From the sequence record NC_047884.1: 64,000 bases of DNA; one strand, given 5' to 3'. Origin of the DNA: Escherichia phage saus132. Positions 11,769 to 58,642 of this stretch are shown here, piece after piece. A program made the position numbers and the translations under genes. Numbering within the stretch: the first letter of the stretch is position 1; each line of letters opens with the position of its first letter. The notes beneath the pieces were generated by a model, which searched no databases, had not been told where the DNA came from, and saw nothing but the letters and a program-made list of their open reading frames with translations.

Positions 11769-11963
11769 ATGGCAATAACACTTCCAAAGATTCAAGCAAA
11801 ACTTAATTTGCTCTCCATAGCAAGAATCAATTACCAGGATAGTATCGGCACTCCAAACCAGAAAGCGTACAAAGATGCGTGGTTGAAAGAAGCTGCTGAT
11901 TTAGCTGGTATGGCTGCGCAGTATAGTAAAGAACTCAAAATGGAAATCGCAGATGATGAATAA
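11769..11963 (+). CDS. Hypothetical small protein
   Basis: ORF abutting upstream stop. Confidence 0.45.
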   Translation: MAITLPKIQAKLNLLSIARINYQDSIGTPNQKAYKDAWLKEAADLAGMAAQYSKELKMEIADDE

Positions 11964-12927
11964 TGTAAAAGACTTTATTAAACGTTGTCAAGAAGCGTAC
12001 TACCAGGGAATGAGTCTTATTTCCGATGAAGAATATGATCGTCTGATTAAAAGATTCCCACTAGAGGAAGAAATCGGACCGAAAGGTGATATCCCTCATT
12101 TGTATCGTATGTATTCTTTGCAGAAAGTCTATTACGATCGTGGTGATAAAGCTCCATTCAACCCACTTGGTCAGGTTGAAACTGATAAGTTAGATGGTTG
12201 TGCGATTTCTCTATTATATATTAATGGTGAATTTATTCAAGCGTTAACTCGTGGTAACGGTATTCTAGGGAATGATGTAACGCATAATGTTAAAATGCTG
12301 AACATCCCTAAAACTATCTCCCAAAAAGTTCCAACTCAAATCACTGGTGAAGTTCTCATCACTAAAGAAGTAGAGAACAAACGTAACTATGCTTCCGGTG
12401 CTATTAACTTGAAAGATAGTGATGATTTCATGCAACGTATTGGTGAAGGTGGTTTAATCTTCGTTGCATATGGTATCCAGTGTTCAGCGGAAACAGTCGG
12501 TATTACAGAAGCCTATTTAAAAGATATGCTTTGGCTAGAGAATGAGAACTTCTTGACAGTTGTTAATGTTCGTTCCTTCTTTAAGTGGATTCCGACGGAT
12601 GGTAAAGTTGTTCGTATTAATGATAACAACAAATTCTTCCGTGAAGGTTGGACTAATAAATTTCCTCGCGGTGCATTTGCTATTAAAGAGGATGAAGAAG
12701 GCGAAATTACCACACTTGTTAAAGTTGAATGGCAAGTAGGGGCTTCTGGTAAAGTAACTCCAGTTGGTTATTTCGAACCGGTGATTATTGATGATGCCAC
12801 AATCGTTAAAGCAACTCTTAATAACGTTGATTATATTAACGCTCTCGATTTAGAGATCGGTTGCCAGATTCGAGTGATTCGTGCTGGTGGTGTAATCCCT
12901 TGTATAGTAGAGCGAGTATACGACTAA
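11953..12927 (+). CDS. NAD-dependent DNA ligase, N-terminal (adenylation) part of a split gene
   Basis: Adenylation motif KLDGCAISLLY (KxDG) in LigA-like context. Confidence 0.85.
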   Translation: MMNNVKDFIKRCQEAYYQGMSLISDEEYDRLIKRFPLEEEIGPKGDIPHLYRMYSLQKVYYDRGDKAPFNPLGQVETDKLDGCAISLLYINGEFIQALTRGNGILGNDVTHNVKMLNIPKTISQKVPTQITGEVLITKEVENKRNYASGAINLKDSDDFMQRIGEGGLIFVAYGIQCSAETVGITEAYLKDMLWLENENFLTVVNVRSFFKWIPTDGKVVRINDNNKFFREGWTNKFPRGAFAIKEDEEGEITTLVKVEWQVGASGKVTPVGYFEPVIIDDATIVKATLNNVDYINALDLEIGCQIRVIRAGGVIPCIVERVYD

Positions 12928-12977
12928 TTCGTAACCCTTTGCTACCCGTTTACCATGTCGGAATTATAAAGTGGTTA

Positions 12978-13006
12978 TTGACATTTTCGCCGCTTAGGTA
13001 TATACT
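12978..13006 (+). promoter_or_regulatory. Near-consensus sigma70 promoter between the two ligase ORFs
   Basis: TTGACA, 17 bp spacer, TATACT. Confidence 0.55.
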
Positions 13007-13070
13007 ATTATCATTCAGTTGAGGGATAGAAAGTTATGGCGAGGGTAAGCAAAGTTAGTTAAAATTGTAG

Positions 13071-13099
13071 TTGCTAAATGCTTAAATACTTGCTATAAT
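13071..13099 (+). promoter_or_regulatory. Early promoter before ligase C-terminal ORF
   Basis: TTGCTA, 17 bp spacer, TGcTATAAT, then ATTTATATAAATTGATAAGGAAG. Confidence 0.5.
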
Positions 13100-13129
13100 A
13101 TTTATATAAATTGATAAGGAAGAAATTTG

Positions 13130-13909
13130 ATGAAAATCGAAATTCCAACACAATGTCCCTCTTGTGGTTCTAAGCTAGATCTTGTCAACGGGCAATTATT
13201 CTGTAGGAATAAGTCCAACTGTCCAGCACAATCAAGTAAGTTAATCGAGAACTTCTGCACAAAAATGAAGTTAAAGGGCTTTGGCCCGAAAACTATTGAG
13301 AAGCTGGAACTGACTAAGATCTCAGAACTGTTTTACCTGACCGAAGAAGATTTGGTCGGAGCTGTGGGTAGCAAGGTTGCCGCTAAGTTGATTAGCGAGT
13401 TAAATACTAAGGTTCGCGGAGACATTGACTTTGGTTCGGTTCTCGGTTCTTTAGGAATTCCTCTTATTGGAGAGGTTGCAGCAAAGAAACTGTCCCAAAA
13501 TTGCACTAGCTTCCACGATGTGAAGGCTGACGGCAAGGCTGGAGAAAATTACAAAACCTGGCTAAATTCCCCACAAGGCAAGGATGTTATTGAATTACCA
13601 TGGAAATTCTCAACTGGTATTCGAGGTACTAAAGCTGATATCATCATTACGGATGATTTAGTTGCCCAGCCAAATGGAATCACGATCTGTATTACCGGAT
13701 CTTTGCAAGATTTTGCAAATCGAACGGATGCAACAAACTATTTAGAAAGTCTAGGATATACGGTTAAGAAATCCGTTACCAAAGACGTCAAATACCTAAT
13801 CTGTGAGGATGAATCAAAACGTTCTTCCTCATCTTATAAGAAAGCCGAAACGAATGGGATAGAAATCCTGTCGATTAAAGAACTATTGGAGAAAAATAAT
13901 AATGTCTAA
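13130..13909 (+). CDS. NAD-dependent DNA ligase, C-terminal part (zinc finger, HhH, BRCT-like)
   Basis: CPSCGSKL...CRNKSNCPAQ Cys4 zinc finger; GIPLIGEVAAKKL HhH-like; C-terminal BRCT-like region. Confidence 0.85.
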   Translation: MKIEIPTQCPSCGSKLDLVNGQLFCRNKSNCPAQSSKLIENFCTKMKLKGFGPKTIEKLELTKISELFYLTEEDLVGAVGSKVAAKLISELNTKVRGDIDFGSVLGSLGIPLIGEVAAKKLSQNCTSFHDVKADGKAGENYKTWLNSPQGKDVIELPWKFSTGIRGTKADIIITDDLVAQPNGITICITGSLQDFANRTDATNYLESLGYTVKKSVTKDVKYLICEDESKRSSSSYKKAETNGIEILSIKELLEKNNNV

Positions 13910-28269: not shown

Positions 28270-28272
28270 TAA

Positions 28273-28303
28273 GAAACCCCAGTGGACAATCCACTGGGGT
28301 TTC
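28273..28303. terminator. Bidirectional terminator at early/late boundary
   Basis: GAAACCCCAGTGG-acaa-TCCACTGGGGTTTC with T/A runs on both sides; convergent genes meet here. Confidence 0.6.
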
Positions 28304-28328
28304 TTTATATTACGTATATATATATATA

Positions 28329-29654
28329 TTATGAGTTATCTGGCGTAATGAGCTCGCTCACAAGTTTTTTCAGTTCGTCTAGCTCTTGTTCTAAAGTAGC
28401 AACTTTTAGTTTCAATTCGTCTGTTTCCTTCTGTTGCTTATCATTATCCTCAATTATTTCTTTAATTGCGTTGGTGAGTAACGCCGTCACACCTGCATAG
28501 TTAATTGAAAGATAATCCGTGTCTGCTACTTTGTAGACAGCTTCTGGTAAAACAGTTACAACGTCTTGAGCAATTAAACCAGCTTCTTCCGTGTAAAAAG
28601 AATGTTCGTTTTCCTCTAAGCTATTACGTTTGAAGTAGGTGTATCCCTGTAAGACTTTAACTTTATCTTTTGCGGATACTATTTCTTTTAACTGAGCTTT
28701 AAGGCGTATATCAGATGTGCTTTGCCATGCGACGGCCGTAGCTTGTCCCGCGCTATTGAAACCATAAGATGTATTTCCAACTAGAAGACGCTGGTAGGGG
28801 TTCCCATCCCCATAAATAACAACATCAGCGCCAGATGCAAAAGTATCACCCCATCTAACTGATTTCCAAATATTTACACCGCCGTCCCTAGACGGGATTT
28901 CCACTAACAGACCAGCCGCCCGATCTCGCCATTCACCATGACCGCCAGCTTGCACTTGACCCGCTATAAGCGCACTACCGGCCCCAGCACGAACACCGTA
29001 TACATACATACCACGAGAGTCATTAGGCGCTGAACTGGAGATAGCGCGTAGGGTGGAAAATCCATTCCCATTAAAAGTACAGAGATTAAGTGAATCGGTA
29101 TAAACATCTAAAACACCATCACTACGCTGTGCAAATCCAGTGTCACTATCACCAATAGCAATAGATCGAGCACCTAAACCCTGTGCGTCACCCGGAGTAC
29201 CAATTGACATACGATCGGTTACTGCTAATGTTGCTGTACGGGATTTGCCAGAAACACCCAAAGCGTTAATAGATAAAAGCCCTGAATTATTGAACGTACA
29301 ATATGATTCTATATTATTTGATAGATTCTTAGTGTGAATTACGGTTTGGGTTTCACCAGTGGCACCATTAATCGCATTATAAAAACGCGATTGGGAACGT
29401 GCCGAGCCTGACGTAGAATATAATGTACTATGATAGATCCCACCATTAGTAGATTCAATATCATAACGAGTAAGAGCATTAACACCGCTAAAGGTAACAG
29501 TTTGACCTTCGCCTAATCGAAGATTAGTACGAGCACCGTTTACATCTGTTGCACCTGTACCGCCAGCACCAATAGGAAGAGCTGATGTAGCGTTATCGCT
29601 ATTTCTAGCAACTCGCCAATCGCCATTATTAGCAATCCGGAGTTCATATGTGGC
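28329..29654 (-). CDS. ltf: L-shaped tail fibre, C-terminal part in frame with upstream ORF (no own start); ends in intramolecular-chaperone (S74) domain
   Basis: Frame open and in phase from the TAA at 29655-29657 down to 28329 (2928 nt overall, divisible by 3); no ATG/GTG before the track's TTG at 29261; C-terminal LKAQLKEIVSAKDKVKVLQGYTYFKRNS is S74 chaperone-like. Confidence 0.7.
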   Translation of the reverse strand, partial: ATYELRIANNGDWRVARNSDNATSALPIGAGGTGATDVNGARTNLRLGEGQTVTFSGVNALTRYDIESTNGGIYHSTLYSTSGSARSQSRFYNAINGATGETQTVIHTKNLSNNIESYCTFNNSGLLSINALGVSGKSRTATLAVTDRMSIGTPGDAQGLGARSIAIGDSDTGFAQRSDGVLDVYTDSLNLCTFNGNGFSTLRAISSSAPNDSRGMYVYGVRAGAGSALIAGQVQAGGHGEWRDRAAGLLVEIPSRDGGVNIWKSVRWGDTFASGADVVIYGDGNPYQRLLVGNTSYGFNSAGQATAVAWQSTSDIRLKAQLKEIVSAKDKVKVLQGYTYFKRNSLEENEHSFYTEEAGLIAQDVVTVLPEAVYKVADTDYLSINYAGVTALLTNAIKEIIEDNDKQQKETDELKLKVATLEQELDELKKLVSELITPDNS

Positions 29655-31256
29655 TTATGGGTTAGTAAATGCGTTATAATCACCTAAAGTAGTTCCAGTT
29701 GTTTGTCTAACAGAATCAACGCCGAGATTCCCTCGAGCTGAAACTTTATCTGTAAGGTCCGCGAGGTTCTGGTCCTTTTTCAAAGACGCTTGCATAACCT
29801 GTGCTGCAGATGCAGCCGCTGTCTCCGCTCTATCTGCTGCACTGGTGGCGTTAGTAGCTTTCTCACTTGCCGTTGTAGCGCTACCAGCGGCCTCTGTAGC
29901 CTTTTGCGTAGCTGTGGTAGCCTTTTGTGTAGCTAAAGCCGCAGCATCTTCTGCTGCTTCTCTCAGCGGTGTCATTGCGTTCAGTGATTCAGTTTTAGCA
30001 GTATTAATAGCGTTAACACCAGCGACCTTGGCTGTGTTAACACCACCAATCGCGCTAGATTTAGCACTTCCTATTGCCGTTAACGCTGCGTCTTTTGACT
30101 GGGTAATGCTGGTTGTTGCATCCGTTTTAGCGGTATTAATTTCTCCAACAGCACCGTCTTTAATAGTTTGCGTGTCGCTCTTTAACTGCTCAACGTCGGA
30201 CTTAAGATTCTGTACTGTGATCACAGCTTGCATAGCAGTACTCGCGCTACCTGATGCAGCTTGTTGAGCTAACTTAGCAGCGTCTTCACTAGCTTTTGAG
30301 TTAATTTCGCTAGTCTTTGCATTAGTTTCTGAATTTTTTGCTGCTAATGCTGATGTAGAGGCTTGTGTAGCGAATGTTTCTGCTTCATCTCTGAATCCTT
30401 TGGATTCAGAGGCAGAGGCAGCGGATAGGGCAGCATTAGTCTCACTATTTTTTGCTGCTGCTGCATATGCTGCTGCATTAGTCTCACTAGTTTTTGCCTT
30501 AGTCTCACTAGTTTTTGCATTAGTCTCACTAGTTTTTGCATTAGTCTCACTAGTTTTTGCCTTAGTCTCACTAGTTTTTGCATTAGTCTCACTAGTTTTT
30601 GCTGCTATTTGTGATGTAGCAGCAGCATTTTTACTTGCTAATGCATTAGTTTCGCTAGTAGCAGCATTCATAGCCGAAGTAGCTGCCGCTAATTCGGAAG
30701 CTTTAGCGTTAGTCTCTGAAACTTCAGCGTTAGTCTCAGAAGTTTTTGCTGCTGTTTGTGAAGCTGCTGCCGCATTTTTACTTGCTAATGCATTAGTTTC
30801 AGAAGTCTTGGCATTAGTCTCAGAAGTTTTTGCGTTAGTTTCAGAAGTTTTTGCTGCGTTTTTGCTTGCTAAAGCTGCTATTTCAGAAGCCTTAGCACTA
30901 GTTTCAGAAGTCTTGGCATTAGTTTCTGAAGTTTTAGCATTTGTAGCAGAAGTTGCTGCGGCTGTTTGAGAGGCGGCAGCTGCATTTTTACTAGTTAATG
31001 CATTAGTCTCGGAAGTCTTAGCGTTTGTCTCAGAAGTTTTTGCATTGATTTCTGATGTTTTTGCAGCATTCTCAGAATCTTTTGCTGCCGCAGCAGAAGC
31101 AGCAGAGGCCTCAACAGCCGCTGTTAGTTGACCAGCAGTAATAGAACTAATAGAATTACCTAAAACTACTGTATATTTAGGATACTTACTAGCAGTAGTT
31201 GTAGTGTCATCTATGTTCAGAGTCTGCTGTACAATAATTTTAGTTTTAAGTGCCAT
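29655..31256 (-). CDS. ltf: L-shaped tail fibre (pb1-like), N-terminal 533 codons ending at an in-frame TAA
   Basis: N-terminus [17 protein letters not shown]...; about 30 heptads of AKTSETN type; fibre motif NLADLTDKVSARGNLG. Confidence 0.8.
   Translation of the reverse strand: MALKTKIIVQQTLNIDDTTTTASKYPKYTVVLGNSISSITAGQLTAAVEASAASAAAAKDSENAAKTSEINAKTSETNAKTSETNALTSKNAAAASQTAAATSATNAKTSETNAKTSETSAKASEIAALASKNAAKTSETNAKTSETNAKTSETNALASKNAAAASQTAAKTSETNAEVSETNAKASELAAATSAMNAATSETNALASKNAAATSQIAAKTSETNAKTSETKAKTSETNAKTSETNAKTSETKAKTSETNAAAYAAAAKNSETNAALSAASASESKGFRDEAETFATQASTSALAAKNSETNAKTSEINSKASEDAAKLAQQAASGSASTAMQAVITVQNLKSDVEQLKSDTQTIKDGAVGEINTAKTDATTSITQSKDAALTAIGSAKSSAIGGVNTAKVAGVNAINTAKTESLNAMTPLREAAEDAAALATQKATTATQKATEAAGSATTASEKATNATSAADRAETAAASAAQVMQASLKKDQNLADLTDKVSARGNLGVDSVRQTTGTTLGDYNAFTNP
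30300..31080. repeat. Tandem 21-bp repeats inside the tail fibre gene
   Basis: Perfect copies of ATTAGTCTCACTAGTTTTTGC around 30476-30603 with degenerate copies on both sides. Confidence 0.85.
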
Positions 31257-31678
31257 TATTTAGTTACTCCATCGCTGATGTATACTTTACCTTCCATAAT
31301 ACGGAAAGAATTGACTTCAGAGCCAATCACATCACGAGTCATTAGGATATCATAATAACCAGCAAAACGTTGTCTTGGGTTATACTTATCACGTTCTTTA
31401 GATGCTTTTTCACCAATATTAGTAGTGTCTACAATGGAAAGACTAATTGCAGCAGCACCTTGAGCAGCATCAATAACATGAGTTTTAAAGTTAGCTAGAA
31501 CCTCGGCGTTCTCATCTAGACTAGATTTAATAGTTCCTCGGAGTGAATATCCGGTTAAGTTAATAGGAACTTCTGTTGGTGGATATACACTGTCGTCAAC
31601 ATCCATAAACTGCATGATAAGACCATAAGGCACTTTCTCATCAACAATAATATCAATAACTCGGTTTTCTGTACTCAT
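31256..31678 (-). CDS. Tail-tip collar protein (T5 p132-like)
   Basis: 140 aa, position between baseplate genes and fibre; stop overlaps fibre start (TAATG). Confidence 0.55.
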
Positions 31679-52184: not shown

Positions 52185-53966
52185 TTAGGTTAGGCGTTGA
52201 ACTGTTACACGTAGTCTTGGCAAGAAAACAGCTGCCGCTTCTGCAGCGTGAATGATAACACCCAACTCAACGTTGCCATTACCAAGGTTTTTAATAGTAT
52301 AAATATATCCGTTCCTACGGAAAGCAAACTCATCAGGCCTACTAGCCCAAGTTTGTGTATAACTATAGGAAGTTGTACTGTGATAAGGTACTAGATATCC
52401 AGGTGGCAGAGTAAGAATCTGGTGGAATACACCATCACCAGCAGTATAACTTTGTTGCCGTCTACCTTGTACCTGCCAAGCACTACCTCCGTAAGTACGC
52501 ACAGGCATTCCAGCAGTATTAAGATTACCCATAATAACTTCAGTAGTTAATATAACAGTAGAGTGAGCATTCGGTAATCCCAACCAAACTGTGGCCAAAG
52601 GTGTGTAGAAGTCACCAGCACCAGGGTAGGATGGAGTTATATCGTCCCCTACATAAGTACTTGCAACGTTGCCTGGGAATAACCTGAGGGGTACAGTACT
52701 AGGACTCCAGACAGGTCCATGTTCATTACCAATGGAGTTGGTATTAGTATCTACATACCATTGTTTACCTACACCAAATTTATATAAGCTAATTTGAGAA
52801 GCTGCACCCCCATAGTTAACAGGAGACCACAATCCGCCATTACTAGAGCCGATAAATTCACATCGTGCAGTATTATCACCAAAAACTCCGGTATACGCAG
52901 CGTTATTACCAACATACTCCATATCAGGGCGATAGCCTAAGTTTCCGAAAGCATTCTGGTTAATAAATTTATAGCCTGTATTTGGTAGGCTAACACCTTT
53001 AATAGTAAAGTTAGATGGAGATATTAAGATATCTGAACCGGTAAATGGATTACCAGAAACTCCCATACTACCATTAGAATAGCGCAGATTTAGTACATAC
53101 CAAATAACCTTAGTTGGCGTAACGTTGTACCAGTCCTGTACATATACCTTTCTAGTGGCTTGCGCAGCCATATTAGTTGTAGAACCCCTACAAACGTATA
53201 CTTTAGTAGGAAAGGAGGGGGATTGGTAGTTAATGTTTACGTTATCTGGTAGTACGCCTTTTTTACCTGCGAAGCCACGAATATTAGAACTACAAACATA
53301 AAACCAATCATGGCCTCTACCAGCAGAACCAATAGGCGCCTGCCAGTTAGGATCCCAATAATCAGCGTTACCACCATCTAAAGGAACAGTAGAGACACCA
53401 GTTGGAAAACCCATAAGACTCCAGGCTCTGGCAATGGCTTCACCAGCAGGAACACCACCAGGTCTAAAGATCTGGAAACCAGAGGACTGTAGTAAACTGC
53501 CTCCAGAACCTTGCCTAGCAATAGATTCCTCATGACCAAGACCACCATTATAGATATAAGTACCATGAGCTAAACTATCCCCGATCGCAAAAGCAGATGT
53601 TACAGATAATTCAGCACCAGCACGTGGTGGGTCTTCAAAAAATGATAAGAACTGGCCAACCTGAGATTGAGTACCATTGAGGAATCCTCTATGAGTACCG
53701 TTTATCTCAATAGCAGTTAATATAACTCTACCTGGATCATTGGATTTAATATTTATAATATCCCAAGGCATCTGAGTAACAAAGTATCCATTACCTGCAT
53801 TACCTAGGGCTGCTTCATAAGTCCCATCAACCAGGACGAAAGGCATATCGGAGTGGAAAATACTATTAGTATTTGGAGAATAGTGCTCACCAGTATCACC
53901 ACCATTAGCAGCATTTAGAGATAATACAGTTTTACCATCACTAAATTTTCCTGCGAAAAAACTCAT
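52185..53966 (-). CDS. Receptor-binding protein (T5 pb5/oad-like)
   Basis: N-terminus MSFFAGKF...[20 protein letters not shown] resembles remembered pb5 start; Gly/Asn/Tyr-rich; divergent lipoprotein gene alongside. Confidence 0.7.
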
Positions 53967-55291: not shown

Positions 55292-56026
55292 TTAGGCAAC
55301 TTTTAATTTATCAATGAATTGTTGCGGAGTGGTACTATATTCCGCGCGTTCTTCCTCGGTCATACCTTCCCAACACATTTTTAAACGTTCGGCTAGGAAT
55401 TGATAATCGTTATCATCATCAAGCGATTCATCAATAAAGGTTTCACCGATCAATGTTACGCCGATTGATAGGATATCATTAACGGCTTGAGCGTCCAGCG
55501 TTTTAAATCCAGCACTTGCCGCCGCCGATAATACACCTTTATGATCATCAATCATTGTAAAATCAGCGTTAGGATATAGCTGTTTAAACAGTTCAAAGTA
55601 ATAAGATTTATATACAGCGTCTTTGCTGTGATATATTTCGCTAACCTTATTTGCATCAAAGTATTTATGTAATGTATCGCGGGAAAATACGCGAATATTA
55701 CTATTTCCGCGCCCTCGCAAGCCTTGTTTACGCAAATAAAAGTAATCGCTTTTAGACATTAAGCGAGCGGTACAAATAATATTTAAAGTATTTGCATCAT
55801 TCATGCACTGGCGCATATATTCAACCAACGGCAATAAAGAATCCTGCATAATTAAATCATGTTTACAGGCTTCGCGGAAATACTTATTTAAATCTAAATT
55901 CCCGTTATCATCAAAGCAAGGCGCTACACGGTGGAAAGAATTAATGATAGTTCCGTCTAAGTCCCAAATCATAACGCGGGAAATATGCGGGAAAGTGCGG
56001 GTAATATTCATATTGACTTGATTCAT
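55292..56026 (-). CDS. dmp: Deoxynucleoside-5'-monophosphatase (HAD family, T5 Dmp-like)
   Basis: 244 aa; N-terminal MIWDLDGTIIN (DxDGT). Confidence 0.75.
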   Translation of the reverse strand: MNQVNMNITRTFPHISRVMIWDLDGTIINSFHRVAPCFDDNGNLDLNKYFREACKHDLIMQDSLLPLVEYMRQCMNDANTLNIICTARLMSKSDYFYLRKQGLRGRGNSNIRVFSRDTLHKYFDANKVSEIYHSKDAVYKSYYFELFKQLYPNADFTMIDDHKGVLSAAASAGFKTLDAQAVNDILSIGVTLIGETFIDESLDDDNDYQFLAERLKMCWEGMTEEERAEYSTTPQQFIDKLKVA

Positions 56027-56113
56027 TTGTTACATTCTCCATTTAAGGGATTTAGGTTAATTCAATCTTGCCAGCTAATTATATTAGATTAGCTGGCAAT
56101 GTTCAATTAACTA

Positions 56114-56506
56114 TTAATTAGTGAGGCCATACGCTAGCGCGTCACCGATAAAGGAAAGATCTTCACCATGTACGCTAGAACGGATACCCGCGCAAGTGTA
56201 AACCATCGCGCTAGCTTCTGGATTGCAGACCGGACACGGCTTAACAACTGCAAACGCTAGACCGGATTTAAGCGCATCAATAATAATTGTTTGCACTGTC
56301 AAAGTATCAGCGTAAACTCCTTTTGCTTTTGTATGGCTTGCCACTTTGCCGGTATCATAAGCAAAGGTAGTAACCTGCAAAGCGTCGTTATAATTCAGCA
56401 AATCGAAATTAACTTGCCCCGCCTCGACGTGATAACGTTCGCCATTAGAATAAACTAGAACGATGGAAGAAGTAGCACGATCAAAAGGAATGTTTTGGTT
56501 TTTCAT
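56114..56506 (-). CDS. Hypothetical pre-early-region protein
   Basis: ORF with GC-richer codon usage typical of this block. Confidence 0.55.
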   Translation of the reverse strand: MKNQNIPFDRATSSIVLVYSNGERYHVEAGQVNFDLLNYNDALQVTTFAYDTGKVASHTKAKGVYADTLTVQTIIIDALKSGLAFAVVKPCPVCNPEASAMVYTCAGIRSSVHGEDLSFIGDALAYGLTN

Positions 56507-56538
56507 GTTTATGACTCCAGATTATTTAATTACGGGAT

Positions 56539-56817
56539 TTATTGAAAAAATACATTTAAAGATAAATCAGTTTTACGAAAATATGTTTCGTCGCCGTCTT
56601 TCCTTTCTTGATTAAGGTAATCGCCTGTCATTACCTGAATAGAATCTTTTCCGAAAAAGATCATATTTTCGCCAATATTACTATCCCATACGGCATACAT
56701 TCCCGCGTACATTCCACGGGTAACTAAATAAACGCAACTATCAAAAGACATTTCAGACCATGCAATATCTTCTAAACAATTGCTATCAGGGATAGATATA
56801 TTAATTTTACTAGCCAT
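56539..56817 (-). CDS. Hypothetical pre-early-region protein
   Basis: ORF between A1-like and dmp-like genes. Confidence 0.5.
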   Translation of the reverse strand: MASKINISIPDSNCLEDIAWSEMSFDSCVYLVTRGMYAGMYAVWDSNIGENMIFFGKDSIQVMTGDYLNQERKDGDETYFRKTDLSLNVFFQ

Positions 56818-56869
56818 TTAATAAACCTTTTATTAATGGCGGTATATTTCAACCGCCGATTAAATTTAA

Positions 56870-58534
56870 TTATGCAAAGAATTTTCCATTCTTAAAGTCA
56901 ATCAAAGTACGCTGCCCGTTTGCGTATGTAATTAAATGGGTTTGCGTCCAGCTACTAGCGCCAACGTTGTAACCCATATCGAGACTACCAGCAACGCCAG
57001 CGGTATAAACGCCGCCATAAATACTAGCCGTGTGAGTGTGGCCAGTATTGAGGCGTCCCAACTTTTTGAACTGTTTTGGATTGCCCCGACTGCCATTAAT
57101 GCCGTTGTGACCATGAACACCGCATTCAATTCCTGCAATCTTGAAAGATTGGTCAGTGGTTAGGAAAATGGCGTTAAATTCGCAACCTGCAACGTTTCTA
57201 AGCGCGTAATCCAATACGTTAAAGGTATCATCTTGTTTTGCAATAGCTGCATAAATCGCGGCGTTTAGGCTGTGATACAGTTCGGCGTTTGCGGGGTCGT
57301 CTTTAATGTTAGCGTTGCGATCATCAAGCCAACGGGATAACGCCAAATCATGATTGGATTCCACGATGATTGTTTGAGAAAAATCGCGCTCCATTGACTC
57401 CAACACGCGACCGGTATCAATGAGATCGTCAATAACTTTGTCACGTCCGGCGGCGTACTGTTTAGCTAGGAATACACCAGAGGCACGATTATGATGATTG
57501 CGGGATGTAAAATCGTGTACGTCATGGATAAACTGATATTTCGGTTTAAGAATATCAAGCAAGCTATTTTCGCCCACCCATGATGCAACGGCGCAATCAT
57601 CATCTAATTTTTCGGCGTGAATATCGCCATATTGCAAGCCTAAAACATGATCAGATGTTTTGAAACATCCGGTGGGCACAGCGCAAACGTTCAAATCGTA
57701 GAACATCCCGCTTTCGTCCATAGTTTCAAGCTGGCGAACAAAAAATTCTCCGTCGTCGTCAAATTCTACCAGTAAAGCACCGAAATTATGCAGCGCCTCG
57801 GCCTTTTGTCCTGCCTTTTGCTGAATATAGTTTTTAAGTGTAGCCGTTCCGGTGGAGTACATACGGCGCACTACTTCACCTTTTAACGCTGGCACACTTT
57901 CAGCGGTAATTTTTGCGTGACCAATTGCCAGACCTTCGATGTTTAAAGCCGTTGCAGTTTCTGCGAATCCAGAAAGCGGATAATCTGCCGTTGGTAATAC
58001 ATTAATTTCAGCCATGAAAGCAAAACGGCGATTATTCAAAAACACGTTTTTCTCACAAATATATTTATCAAATGCGGGATCATATTTGATTTTTTCGCCG
58101 CCTTCCCCGTTCTGAAATCCGTTTTTGTTGTAAATGAATTTGCTAACAAGTAATTCAGCGCCGTAATAACTAGCGTACTGCTCAAGCGCTTTCAAAAAGT
58201 TTTTATGCGGGAAAGTATTGTTTTGAATCGACGTTAGAATAAAACGGCGACCGGATTTAACTTCCCACTGTTCAACGGTGCTAGAAACAATCCCCGCCGC
58301 TTCTGGGCGATCATCGTTTTTAATGGCTTTTACTGCCTTCGCTGCCTTCGGTTTCGCTGGCTTATTTGCTTCCAACCAGTCACAAATTGCCGTTGAATGT
58401 TTCGGCGTATCATAAACAGCTTTTGAAATATCGTCGCAAACTTCCAATTTAGTAGCGCGTAAACGCTTACCGTAGAAGTTAAAATCTGCGGCCATTTTCA
58501 AAATTTGAGCTTGTTTTTCTGCGGAAATATTCAT
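56870..58534 (-). CDS. A1: A1-like pre-early protein (calcineurin-type metallophosphatase motifs)
   Basis: 554 aa; motifs GDIHAEK, GHNGINGSRGNP, GHTHTASIY; size matches remembered T5 A1. Confidence 0.75.
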   Translation of the reverse strand: MNISAEKQAQILKMAADFNFYGKRLRATKLEVCDDISKAVYDTPKHSTAICDWLEANKPAKPKAAKAVKAIKNDDRPEAAGIVSSTVEQWEVKSGRRFILTSIQNNTFPHKNFLKALEQYASYYGAELLVSKFIYNKNGFQNGEGGEKIKYDPAFDKYICEKNVFLNNRRFAFMAEINVLPTADYPLSGFAETATALNIEGLAIGHAKITAESVPALKGEVVRRMYSTGTATLKNYIQQKAGQKAEALHNFGALLVEFDDDGEFFVRQLETMDESGMFYDLNVCAVPTGCFKTSDHVLGLQYGDIHAEKLDDDCAVASWVGENSLLDILKPKYQFIHDVHDFTSRNHHNRASGVFLAKQYAAGRDKVIDDLIDTGRVLESMERDFSQTIIVESNHDLALSRWLDDRNANIKDDPANAELYHSLNAAIYAAIAKQDDTFNVLDYALRNVAGCEFNAIFLTTDQSFKIAGIECGVHGHNGINGSRGNPKQFKKLGRLNTGHTHTASIYGGVYTAGVAGSLDMGYNVGASSWTQTHLITYANGQRTLIDFKNGKFFA

Positions 58535-58642
58535 AACTAAATCAACTCCTATAAAGGGATAAATATTAATACTGGCAATATTGCCAAATATAACGCCTTA
58601 CCTGAAGTGAGGACAATTTAAAAGGCGTTATAATTTGCAATA

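Follow-up and report, generated by a model that had tools for sequence, protein, structure and literature searches.

The side fibre of phage T5 is built from pb1, a homotrimer in which a C-terminal intramolecular chaperone serves folding and is autoproteolysed after correct trimerisation, and the tip of this fibre binds the O-antigen (PMC4690869). Fibre-less T5, namely T5hd1 and another laboratory-adapted T5, still plaques efficiently, as is mentioned in PMC11313276 with reference to Saigo 1978. For the T5-like phages DT57C and DT571/2, it was reported that the fibres are dispensable on laboratory strains and that fibre-less mutants presumably arise at high rate and/or are favoured on C600 (Golomidova et al. 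2016, PMC4728585). Engineered nonsense mutants in ltf were devoid of fibres in the electron microscope, and their growth on rough strains was normal (PMC4728585).

The DNA analysed here (the window) is a stretch of 64,000 nucleotides that is 100% identical to positions 57987-121986 of record MF431738.1, the T5-like phage poul149 (Epseptimavirus saus132). The explanation that we consider very probable is that the ltf gene of this phage was knocked out by a C-to-T change, by which the CAA codon of Gln534 became the ochre codon TAA, and that this is a case of fibre loss linked to K-12. The features of the locus are as follows.

31256..31678, minus strand: collar protein for L-shaped fibre attachment, p132-like, 140 aa (phrog_34807, E = 2e-25)
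31256..29655, minus strand: upstream open reading frame, 533 aa and stop
29658..31256, minus strand: translated N-terminal 533 codons of ltf (GenBank P149_0131), N-terminal region and Ala/Ser/Thr-rich shaft
29655..29657, minus strand: premature ochre codon TAA, C-to-T of the ancestral CAA (Gln534); the siblings have C
28329..29654, minus strand: stranded C-terminal 441 codons and natural stop, no start codon with a ribosome-binding site (RBS)
28958 and 28964, minus strand: other variable ltf sites, CAA-to-TAA (Q767*) in chee158 and A765T in cott162, respectively; the window is ancestral at both
28332..28715, minus strand: C-terminal intramolecular chaperone of Peptidase_S74 type, residues 848-975
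28271..28305, minus strand: hairpin followed by a U-rich stretch, directly after the natural ltf stop (-28.1 kcal/mol, z = -7.9)
52185-53966: separate tail-tip receptor-binding protein gene

The slot is recognised as the ltf locus because its upstream neighbour is the p132-like collar protein, whose profile phrog_34807 is labelled 'collar tail protein for L-shaped tail fibre attachment'. The fibre gene closes the late tail operon, directly after this collar gene and a straight-fibre/pb4-like gene. The same order is found in Shivani, SE3 and OSY-STA: the straight-fibre (pb4-like) gene comes first, the collar protein of 140 aa, annotated in the same way, comes next, and one fibre gene of 961-983 aa follows in this slot, with a convergent dUTPase gene beyond it. 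The hairpin behind the natural stop lies between convergent transcription units; it was absent from a simple consensus terminator scan and its high stability was seen by folding. A polar effect of the nonsense codon on other genes was considered and rejected, and no such cost would be expected, because ltf is the last gene before this strong hairpin and the convergent genes.

L-shaped fibres of the T5 type are trimers, three to a virion, that bind a surface polysaccharide, and the protein itself has the sequence parts of such a fibre. The first ~1040-1110 nt of the gene share 89-96% identity with 'L-shaped fiber' genes of Salmonella T5-like phages, and residues 3-76 match positions 2-75 of phrog_24369 (E = 2e-68), a tail-fibre profile of 1396 positions which, going by its length only, would represent T5 pb1. 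The shaft carries 7-residue (21-nt) tandem repeats of the KTSETNA type at 30433-31046. The part stranded behind the premature stop spans the conserved junction motif YELRIANNGDWRVARNSDNATSAL, the receptor-binding region and the intramolecular chaperone. Over its 441 residues it shares 45-51% identity with the C-terminal ends of fibres known as lateral or L-shaped in other T5-like and in T1-like phages, always within single genes, and its only sequence match in the PDB is 6f45, a long tail fibre distal subunit. The chaperone begins at an autocleavage-type motif S-T-S|DIRLK (SDIRLK at residue 848), downstream of the premature stop, and the C-terminal S74 domain named in the original prediction proved to be real, with the Pfam core PF13884 at residues 848-908 of the repaired protein (28533-28715, E = 8e-10). 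Against phrog_5481, which has 1043 positions, the upstream half covers positions 133-529 (E = 2e-145) and the downstream half positions 719-1042, collinearly. Given the gene order, the collinear PHROG matches and the single-gene homologues of the C-terminal part, this is, as far as sequence comparison can assign it, a single gene for the L-shaped (lateral) tail fibre, ltf, rather than an LtfA/LtfB pair.

As compared to T5, the gene occupies the same locus, directly downstream of the p132-like collar gene where the late tail operon ends, and the two fibres have a homologous N-terminal region and a C-terminal Peptidase_S74 chaperone with a cleavage motif of the S|D-x-R-x-K type. The T5 fibre, likewise dispensable on K-12 with fibre-less mutants that still plaque, is longer (1396 aa versus 975 aa in poul149), its 'bullet' domain is unrelated in sequence to the receptor-binding region of poul149, and the lesion of poul149 is a defined single ochre codon. 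DT57C and DT571/2 are also T5-like; on C600 they lost fibre function in about 30% of clones, and their nonsense ltf mutants were fully infective on rough strains. They differ in having a branched fibre of two genes, LtfA/LtfB, whereas poul149 has a single ltf, and in that their phenotypes come from electron microscopy and host-range tests, whereas that of poul149 is predicted from sequence. A further parallel is phage lambda PaPa, in which Hendrix and Duda are said to have found in 1992 that the side-fibre gene stf is split by a frameshift, so that laboratory lambda lacks side tail fibres. There too, a point lesion divides the side-fibre gene of a laboratory siphophage into two open reading frames and the fibres are dispensable on K-12, but the lesion shifts the reading frame where that of poul149 is a nonsense codon, and the two fibres belong to unrelated families.

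The minus strand reads ...AAC CCA TAA GCC ACA TAT GAA CTC... around the lesion, with the TAA at 29657-29655, and the whole frame extends from 31256 to 28329 on this strand, ending in the natural TAA at 28331-28329. On the plus strand, the C-to-T change of the coding strand is a G-to-A change at 29657, where our base call is that of the deposited Illumina/SPAdes assembly. The original prediction had described a tail-fibre frame of 976 codons split by an ochre codon. The split was borne out, while the figure of 976 counts both the internal and the terminal stop and the intact protein, with the stop replaced by Gln, has 975 aa. Re-reading of the sequence agreed with the prediction that the 131 codons past the TAA are open and contain no in-frame ATG or GTG, the first start-type codon being the TTG at 29261, and that a Shine-Dalgarno sequence is missing downstream; none was found in the 20 nt before any in-frame ATG, GTG or TTG. 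The frame was also said to be open beyond chance. With the composition of the window (40.1% GC) and a probability of 0.062 that a codon is a stop, 131 codons in a row would be open by chance with P = 2.3e-4, and 442 codons with P = 5e-13.

Five near-identical genomes of 121,986 bp (poul149, chee130_1, saus176N, cott162 and chee158) were compared base by base. Codon 534 is TAA in poul149 and CAA (Gln) in the other four, three of which (chee130_1, saus176N and cott162) have an intact ltf; an intact 975-aa 'tail fibers protein' is annotated as one gene in three of the four siblings. In a MAFFT protein alignment, Shivani, SE3 and OSY-STA read Asn, Asn and Ala at the stop position, which falls within the conserved block GDYNxFTxP-X-xxYELRIANNGDWRVARNSDNATSAL. 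The sibling CAA with its single 975-aa gene, the single genes of the relatives and the collinear PHROG matches showed that both open reading frames are parts of one fibre gene. The comparison with T5-like relatives proposed at that time gave one gene with a sense codon at the site in all three, and two separately initiated genes, the arrangement that would have spoken against a single gene, occurred in none of the genomes compared. The poul149 record gives two 'tail fibers protein' genes, the second of which starts from an internal ATG at 29210, 148 codons past the stop and with no RBS, and looks like an annotation artefact. In poul149, the stranded C-terminal part should remain untranslated.

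The nonsense SNP is already known, as it was published by the authors of the genome (Sváb et al. 2018, Front Microbiol 9:202, PMC5816814). Their Table 3B lists position 87643 in ORF133 'Phage tail fibers', where chee130_1 has G but both saus132 and poul149 have A, as 'Q443*', and position 86944 in chee158 as 'Q210*' (PMC5816814). Record position 87643 is 29657 of the window. The residue labels of that table count from the low-coordinate end of the minus-strand gene, and when relabelled 'Q443*' is Q534*, 'Q210*' is Q767* and 'A212T' is A765T. The allele of saus132 was taken from the same table. Sváb et al. thus treated the same genome and the same position and reached the same conclusion, a premature stop in ORF133; the gene was not named ltf in their report, and selection on K-12 and loss of the chaperone were not discussed. 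They stated that the premature tail-fibre stops of saus132, poul149 and chee158 seemingly left host specificity unaffected ('data not shown'), and that E. coli K-12 C600 and MG1655 served both for isolating the phages and for at least three rounds of re-propagation (PMC5816814). A 32-mer across the site, with C or T allowed, had no match in viral_contigs, and the exact 533-aa product had none in the protein collection searched.

The variable sites of the sibling genomes are unevenly distributed. The five genomes differ at 9 sites over 64 kb, and three of these lie in the 2.9-kb ltf: Q534* in poul149, Q767* in chee158 and A765T in cott162, two of the three being independent CAA-to-TAA changes. 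The probability of at least three changes in ltf is 0.0024, calculated from the 11 genome-wide variable positions listed by Sváb et al. 2018. Since only 3.9% of the possible ltf substitutions, and 1.8% of the transitions, create a stop, at least two nonsense changes out of three would be expected under random substitution with P = 0.004, or 0.0009 when transitions only are counted. This clustering in ltf and the share of nonsense changes point to selection for loss of function, and not to error or drift. In the sister chee24 group, two of the five SNPs were likewise listed in the tail-fibre gene (PMC5816814, Table 3A). Within the sibling set, the loci that change first in a K-12-passaged wild T5-like phage would be ltf and the pre-early A1 region. 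A literature search on the cause of the A1 mutation cluster found nothing relevant.

A sequencing or assembly error, or a consensus drawn from a mixed stock, would mean that the real phage or most of its population has CAA and an intact fibre gene. The sequencing was done by Illumina NextSeq with SPAdes assembly, and the SNPs came from BLAST comparison of the assemblies, the description of which mentions no validation against reads (PMC5816814); the left and right terminal repeats of poul149 differ at one base, which hints at heterogeneity or at a choice made in assembly. However, the change is a substitution (context CCA[C/T]AAG) and not a homopolymer indel, and the same base is reported for the independently assembled saus132, which is of the same lineage as poul149 and shares two further SNPs with it, at positions 595 and 50473 (PMC5816814). 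The concentration of SNPs in ltf (P = 0.0024) with two of three being nonsense (P = 0.004) is also unlike random errors, and we regard such an error as unlikely. A pair of fibre genes that are each expressed on their own, as for the branched LtfA/LtfB fibre of DT57C, would agree with the two tail-fibre genes given in GenBank for poul149 and with the two-gene ltf loci that exist in T5-like phages (PMC4728585). But the second of the annotated genes starts at the internal ATG (29210) without a Shine-Dalgarno sequence, the stretch of 131 codons that separates the stop from the first possible start encodes conserved protein sequence, siblings one base apart have a single open reading frame, and both halves align collinearly to one family profile. 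A fibre of the LtfA/LtfB type was rejected in view of the single genes in the siblings (975 aa) and the relatives (961-983 aa) and the lack of an RBS for a second gene, and we give it almost no credence.

Readthrough or suppression of the UAA, e.g., by the phage tRNA-Gln(UUG), would give some full-length fibre. With its anticodon UUG this tRNA is near-cognate to UAA, and the residue inserted would be the ancestral Gln; the 100 nt past the stop fold moderately better than shuffled sequence (z = -2.8). This downstream sequence and its structure are, however, identical in the siblings, where they follow a sense codon, so the structure is no evidence of a dedicated readthrough signal. Nor is the stop conserved as a recoding site would be, being absent from four siblings and all relatives examined. 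ARAGORN found 28 phage tRNA genes in the tRNA cluster, including two tRNA-Gln with the anticodons UUG and CUG, and no tRNA genes within the 64-kb window. None of the 28 carries a stop-reading anticodon (UUA, CUA or UCA), and a phage suppressor tRNA was rejected. On the host side, the supE44 (glnV44) suppressor of C600 reads UAG and not UAA, and MG1655 has no suppressor. Of the 59 annotated genes in the window, 45 end in TAA, and the tetranucleotide TAAG occurs as a terminator 6 times. We consider a leaky stop very unlikely, and hold it equally improbable that the ochre codon of poul149 is slightly leaky, with a small fraction of wild-type fibres, and is an allele that reduces dosage rather than a null. 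If this were true, a leaky ochre with an abundantly expressed tRNA-Gln(UUG) would explain the reported unchanged host range and, together with the ochre of chee158, would suggest that CAA-to-TAA changes tune the number of fibres.

The original prediction had left a sequencing error, a genuine nonsense mutation and readthrough side by side. The genuine nonsense mutation is favoured here because the SNP was reported in a second isolate, an independent ochre exists in chee158 and nonsense changes are enriched; readthrough is disfavoured by the lack of a suppressor tRNA among the phage tRNAs, by TAA being the stop with which genes here usually end, and by the missing conservation of this stop. Since no downstream start has an RBS, no suppressor tRNA was found and TAA is a common terminator, this is most probably a real loss-of-function ochre mutation, and not recoding or a two-gene fibre.

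For a knocked-out ltf, translation would end after 533 residues, and the N-terminal region and the repeat-rich shaft would be kept. The truncated product would lack the receptor-binding region and the Peptidase_S74 chaperone, which such fibres use to fold as a trimer, and because of this we infer that the virions should be without functional side fibres. The alpha-helical, repeat-rich fragment of 533 aa might still trimerise and attach as a stub. The phage would stay viable because infection would proceed via the separate tail-tip receptor-binding protein (52185-53966), while the side fibres would only speed adsorption to O-antigen-bearing hosts and be dispensable on rough K-12 strains. The allele most likely arose, or rose in frequency, while the phage was being enriched and propagated on E. 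coli K-12 C600 and MG1655, with a timing and a cause of selection that we infer. Poul149 and saus132 were isolated from different foods, so the nonsense allele may be older than laboratory passage or these two isolates may not be independent. An inactivating lesion set against intact alleles in three near-identical siblings was found here, the history of propagation on K-12 comes from PMC5816814, and by this analysis the poul149 allele would fit the loss of dispensable side fibres on laboratory K-12.

The finding adds little new biology, as the SNP was published with the genome and side-fibre loss on K-12 is textbook knowledge for T5, lambda and DT57C-like phages. In the annotation, P149_0131 and P149_0130 would better be joined into a single disrupted ltf, and chee158 calls for the same treatment. 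For biocontrol in food, the siblings with an intact ltf (chee130_1, saus176N and cott162) should be preferred, since poor adsorption to wild strains with O-antigen is to be expected of variants that lack fibres. These near-identical isolates may serve as a small natural experiment on the first loci to change under K-12 passage.

The C-terminal part of the L-shaped tail-fibre gene (ltf) of poul149, stranded behind the premature ochre stop, carries a coding sequence of its own in GenBank, which together with two other segments of the fibre gene is listed here.

28329-29210, minus strand: P149_0130, GenBank CDS, second 'tail fibers protein', 293 aa
29610-29654, minus strand: first residues after the stop
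30433-31046, minus strand: 21-nt (7-residue, KTSETNA-like) tandem repeats in the N-terminal fibre shaft

P149_0130 starts at an internal ATG without a ribosome-binding site, 148 codons past the premature stop, and is most likely an artefact of automatic annotation that should be merged into one disrupted ltf. A split annotation of the same kind is found in the sibling chee158, at the stop of that phage's own ltf. The C-terminal module resembles fibres of unrelated siphophages, namely T1-like and Dhillonvirus-type Stf proteins such as those of tiwna, Sazh and Stevie. The stranded part shows this homology from its residue 1-2 onwards, and nucleotide homology of the N-terminal part to other Epseptimaviruses stops near codon 350-500, which places the stop near a module-exchange junction, marked by a conserved YELRIANNGDWRVARN motif; the closeness of the two is probably a coincidence. 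The repeat array of the shaft has higher-order periods of 42, 84 and 105 nt, and repeat_regions are annotated at this position in related phages. Slippage or recombination in such arrays could change the length of the fibre.

The window positions 28958, 28964, 29657, 55878, 57784 and 57990 were checked against the published SNP list (Table 3B of PMC5816814), whose amino-acid labels appear to be incorrect for genes on the minus strand. In ltf the residues were counted from the wrong end of the gene, and the corrected labels are Q534* for Q443*, Q767* for Q210* and A765T for A212T. Positions 595 and 2501 are given as synonymous in the same table; position 595 is a change at the second codon position (S50F) and position 2501 a change at the first codon position (F251L). 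Position 2707, published as R182W, was T182M by our translation.

A second mutation cluster among the sibling genomes, stronger than that in ltf, was observed in the right terminal repeat at 55878-58588, a stretch that takes in dmp, A1 and the sequence upstream of A1. Each isolate among the genomes compared has a private change there.

55878: SNP in poul149, dmp S50F
57057: SNP in chee158, A1 G493A
57202: SNP in cott162, A1 L445F
57990: SNP in saus176N, A1 T182M
58585 and 58588: SNPs in chee130_1, upstream of A1

With position 2501 of the left terminal repeat counted, six of the 11 genome-wide SNPs lie in A1 and the sequence upstream of it, a length of about 2.1 kb (P = 1.5e-8). The coding changes of the cluster were all non-synonymous when translated in this analysis, and no explanation for the clustering of mutations in the A1 region was found in the literature.

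The terminal repeats of T5-type phages are expected to be identical. Those of the deposited poul149 record (MF431738) differ, with G at position 2501 of the left repeat and A at the equivalent position of the right repeat, window 57784, so that one copy of A1 has CTC (Leu) at codon 251 and the other TTC (Phe), which points to polymorphism in the stock or to a choice made during assembly. Elsewhere in the window, two neighbouring CDSs are separated by about 200 bp.

11956-12927, plus strand: CDS annotated 'DNA ligase'
13130-13909, plus strand: CDS annotated 'DNA ligase'

This pair (11956-13909) is possibly the arrangement known from T5-like phages, in which the ligase has two subunits or is split.

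Different foods were the sources of the six phages MF431736-MF431741, of which five are from Ukraine and one is from Hungary. All six genomes have the same length, 121,986 bp, and differ from chee130_1, the type phage of the group, at only 2-5 positions per genome. They are clonal to a degree that is unusual for independent environmental isolates, and a common laboratory or enrichment source is a possibility, which is relevant to when the ltf mutations arose.
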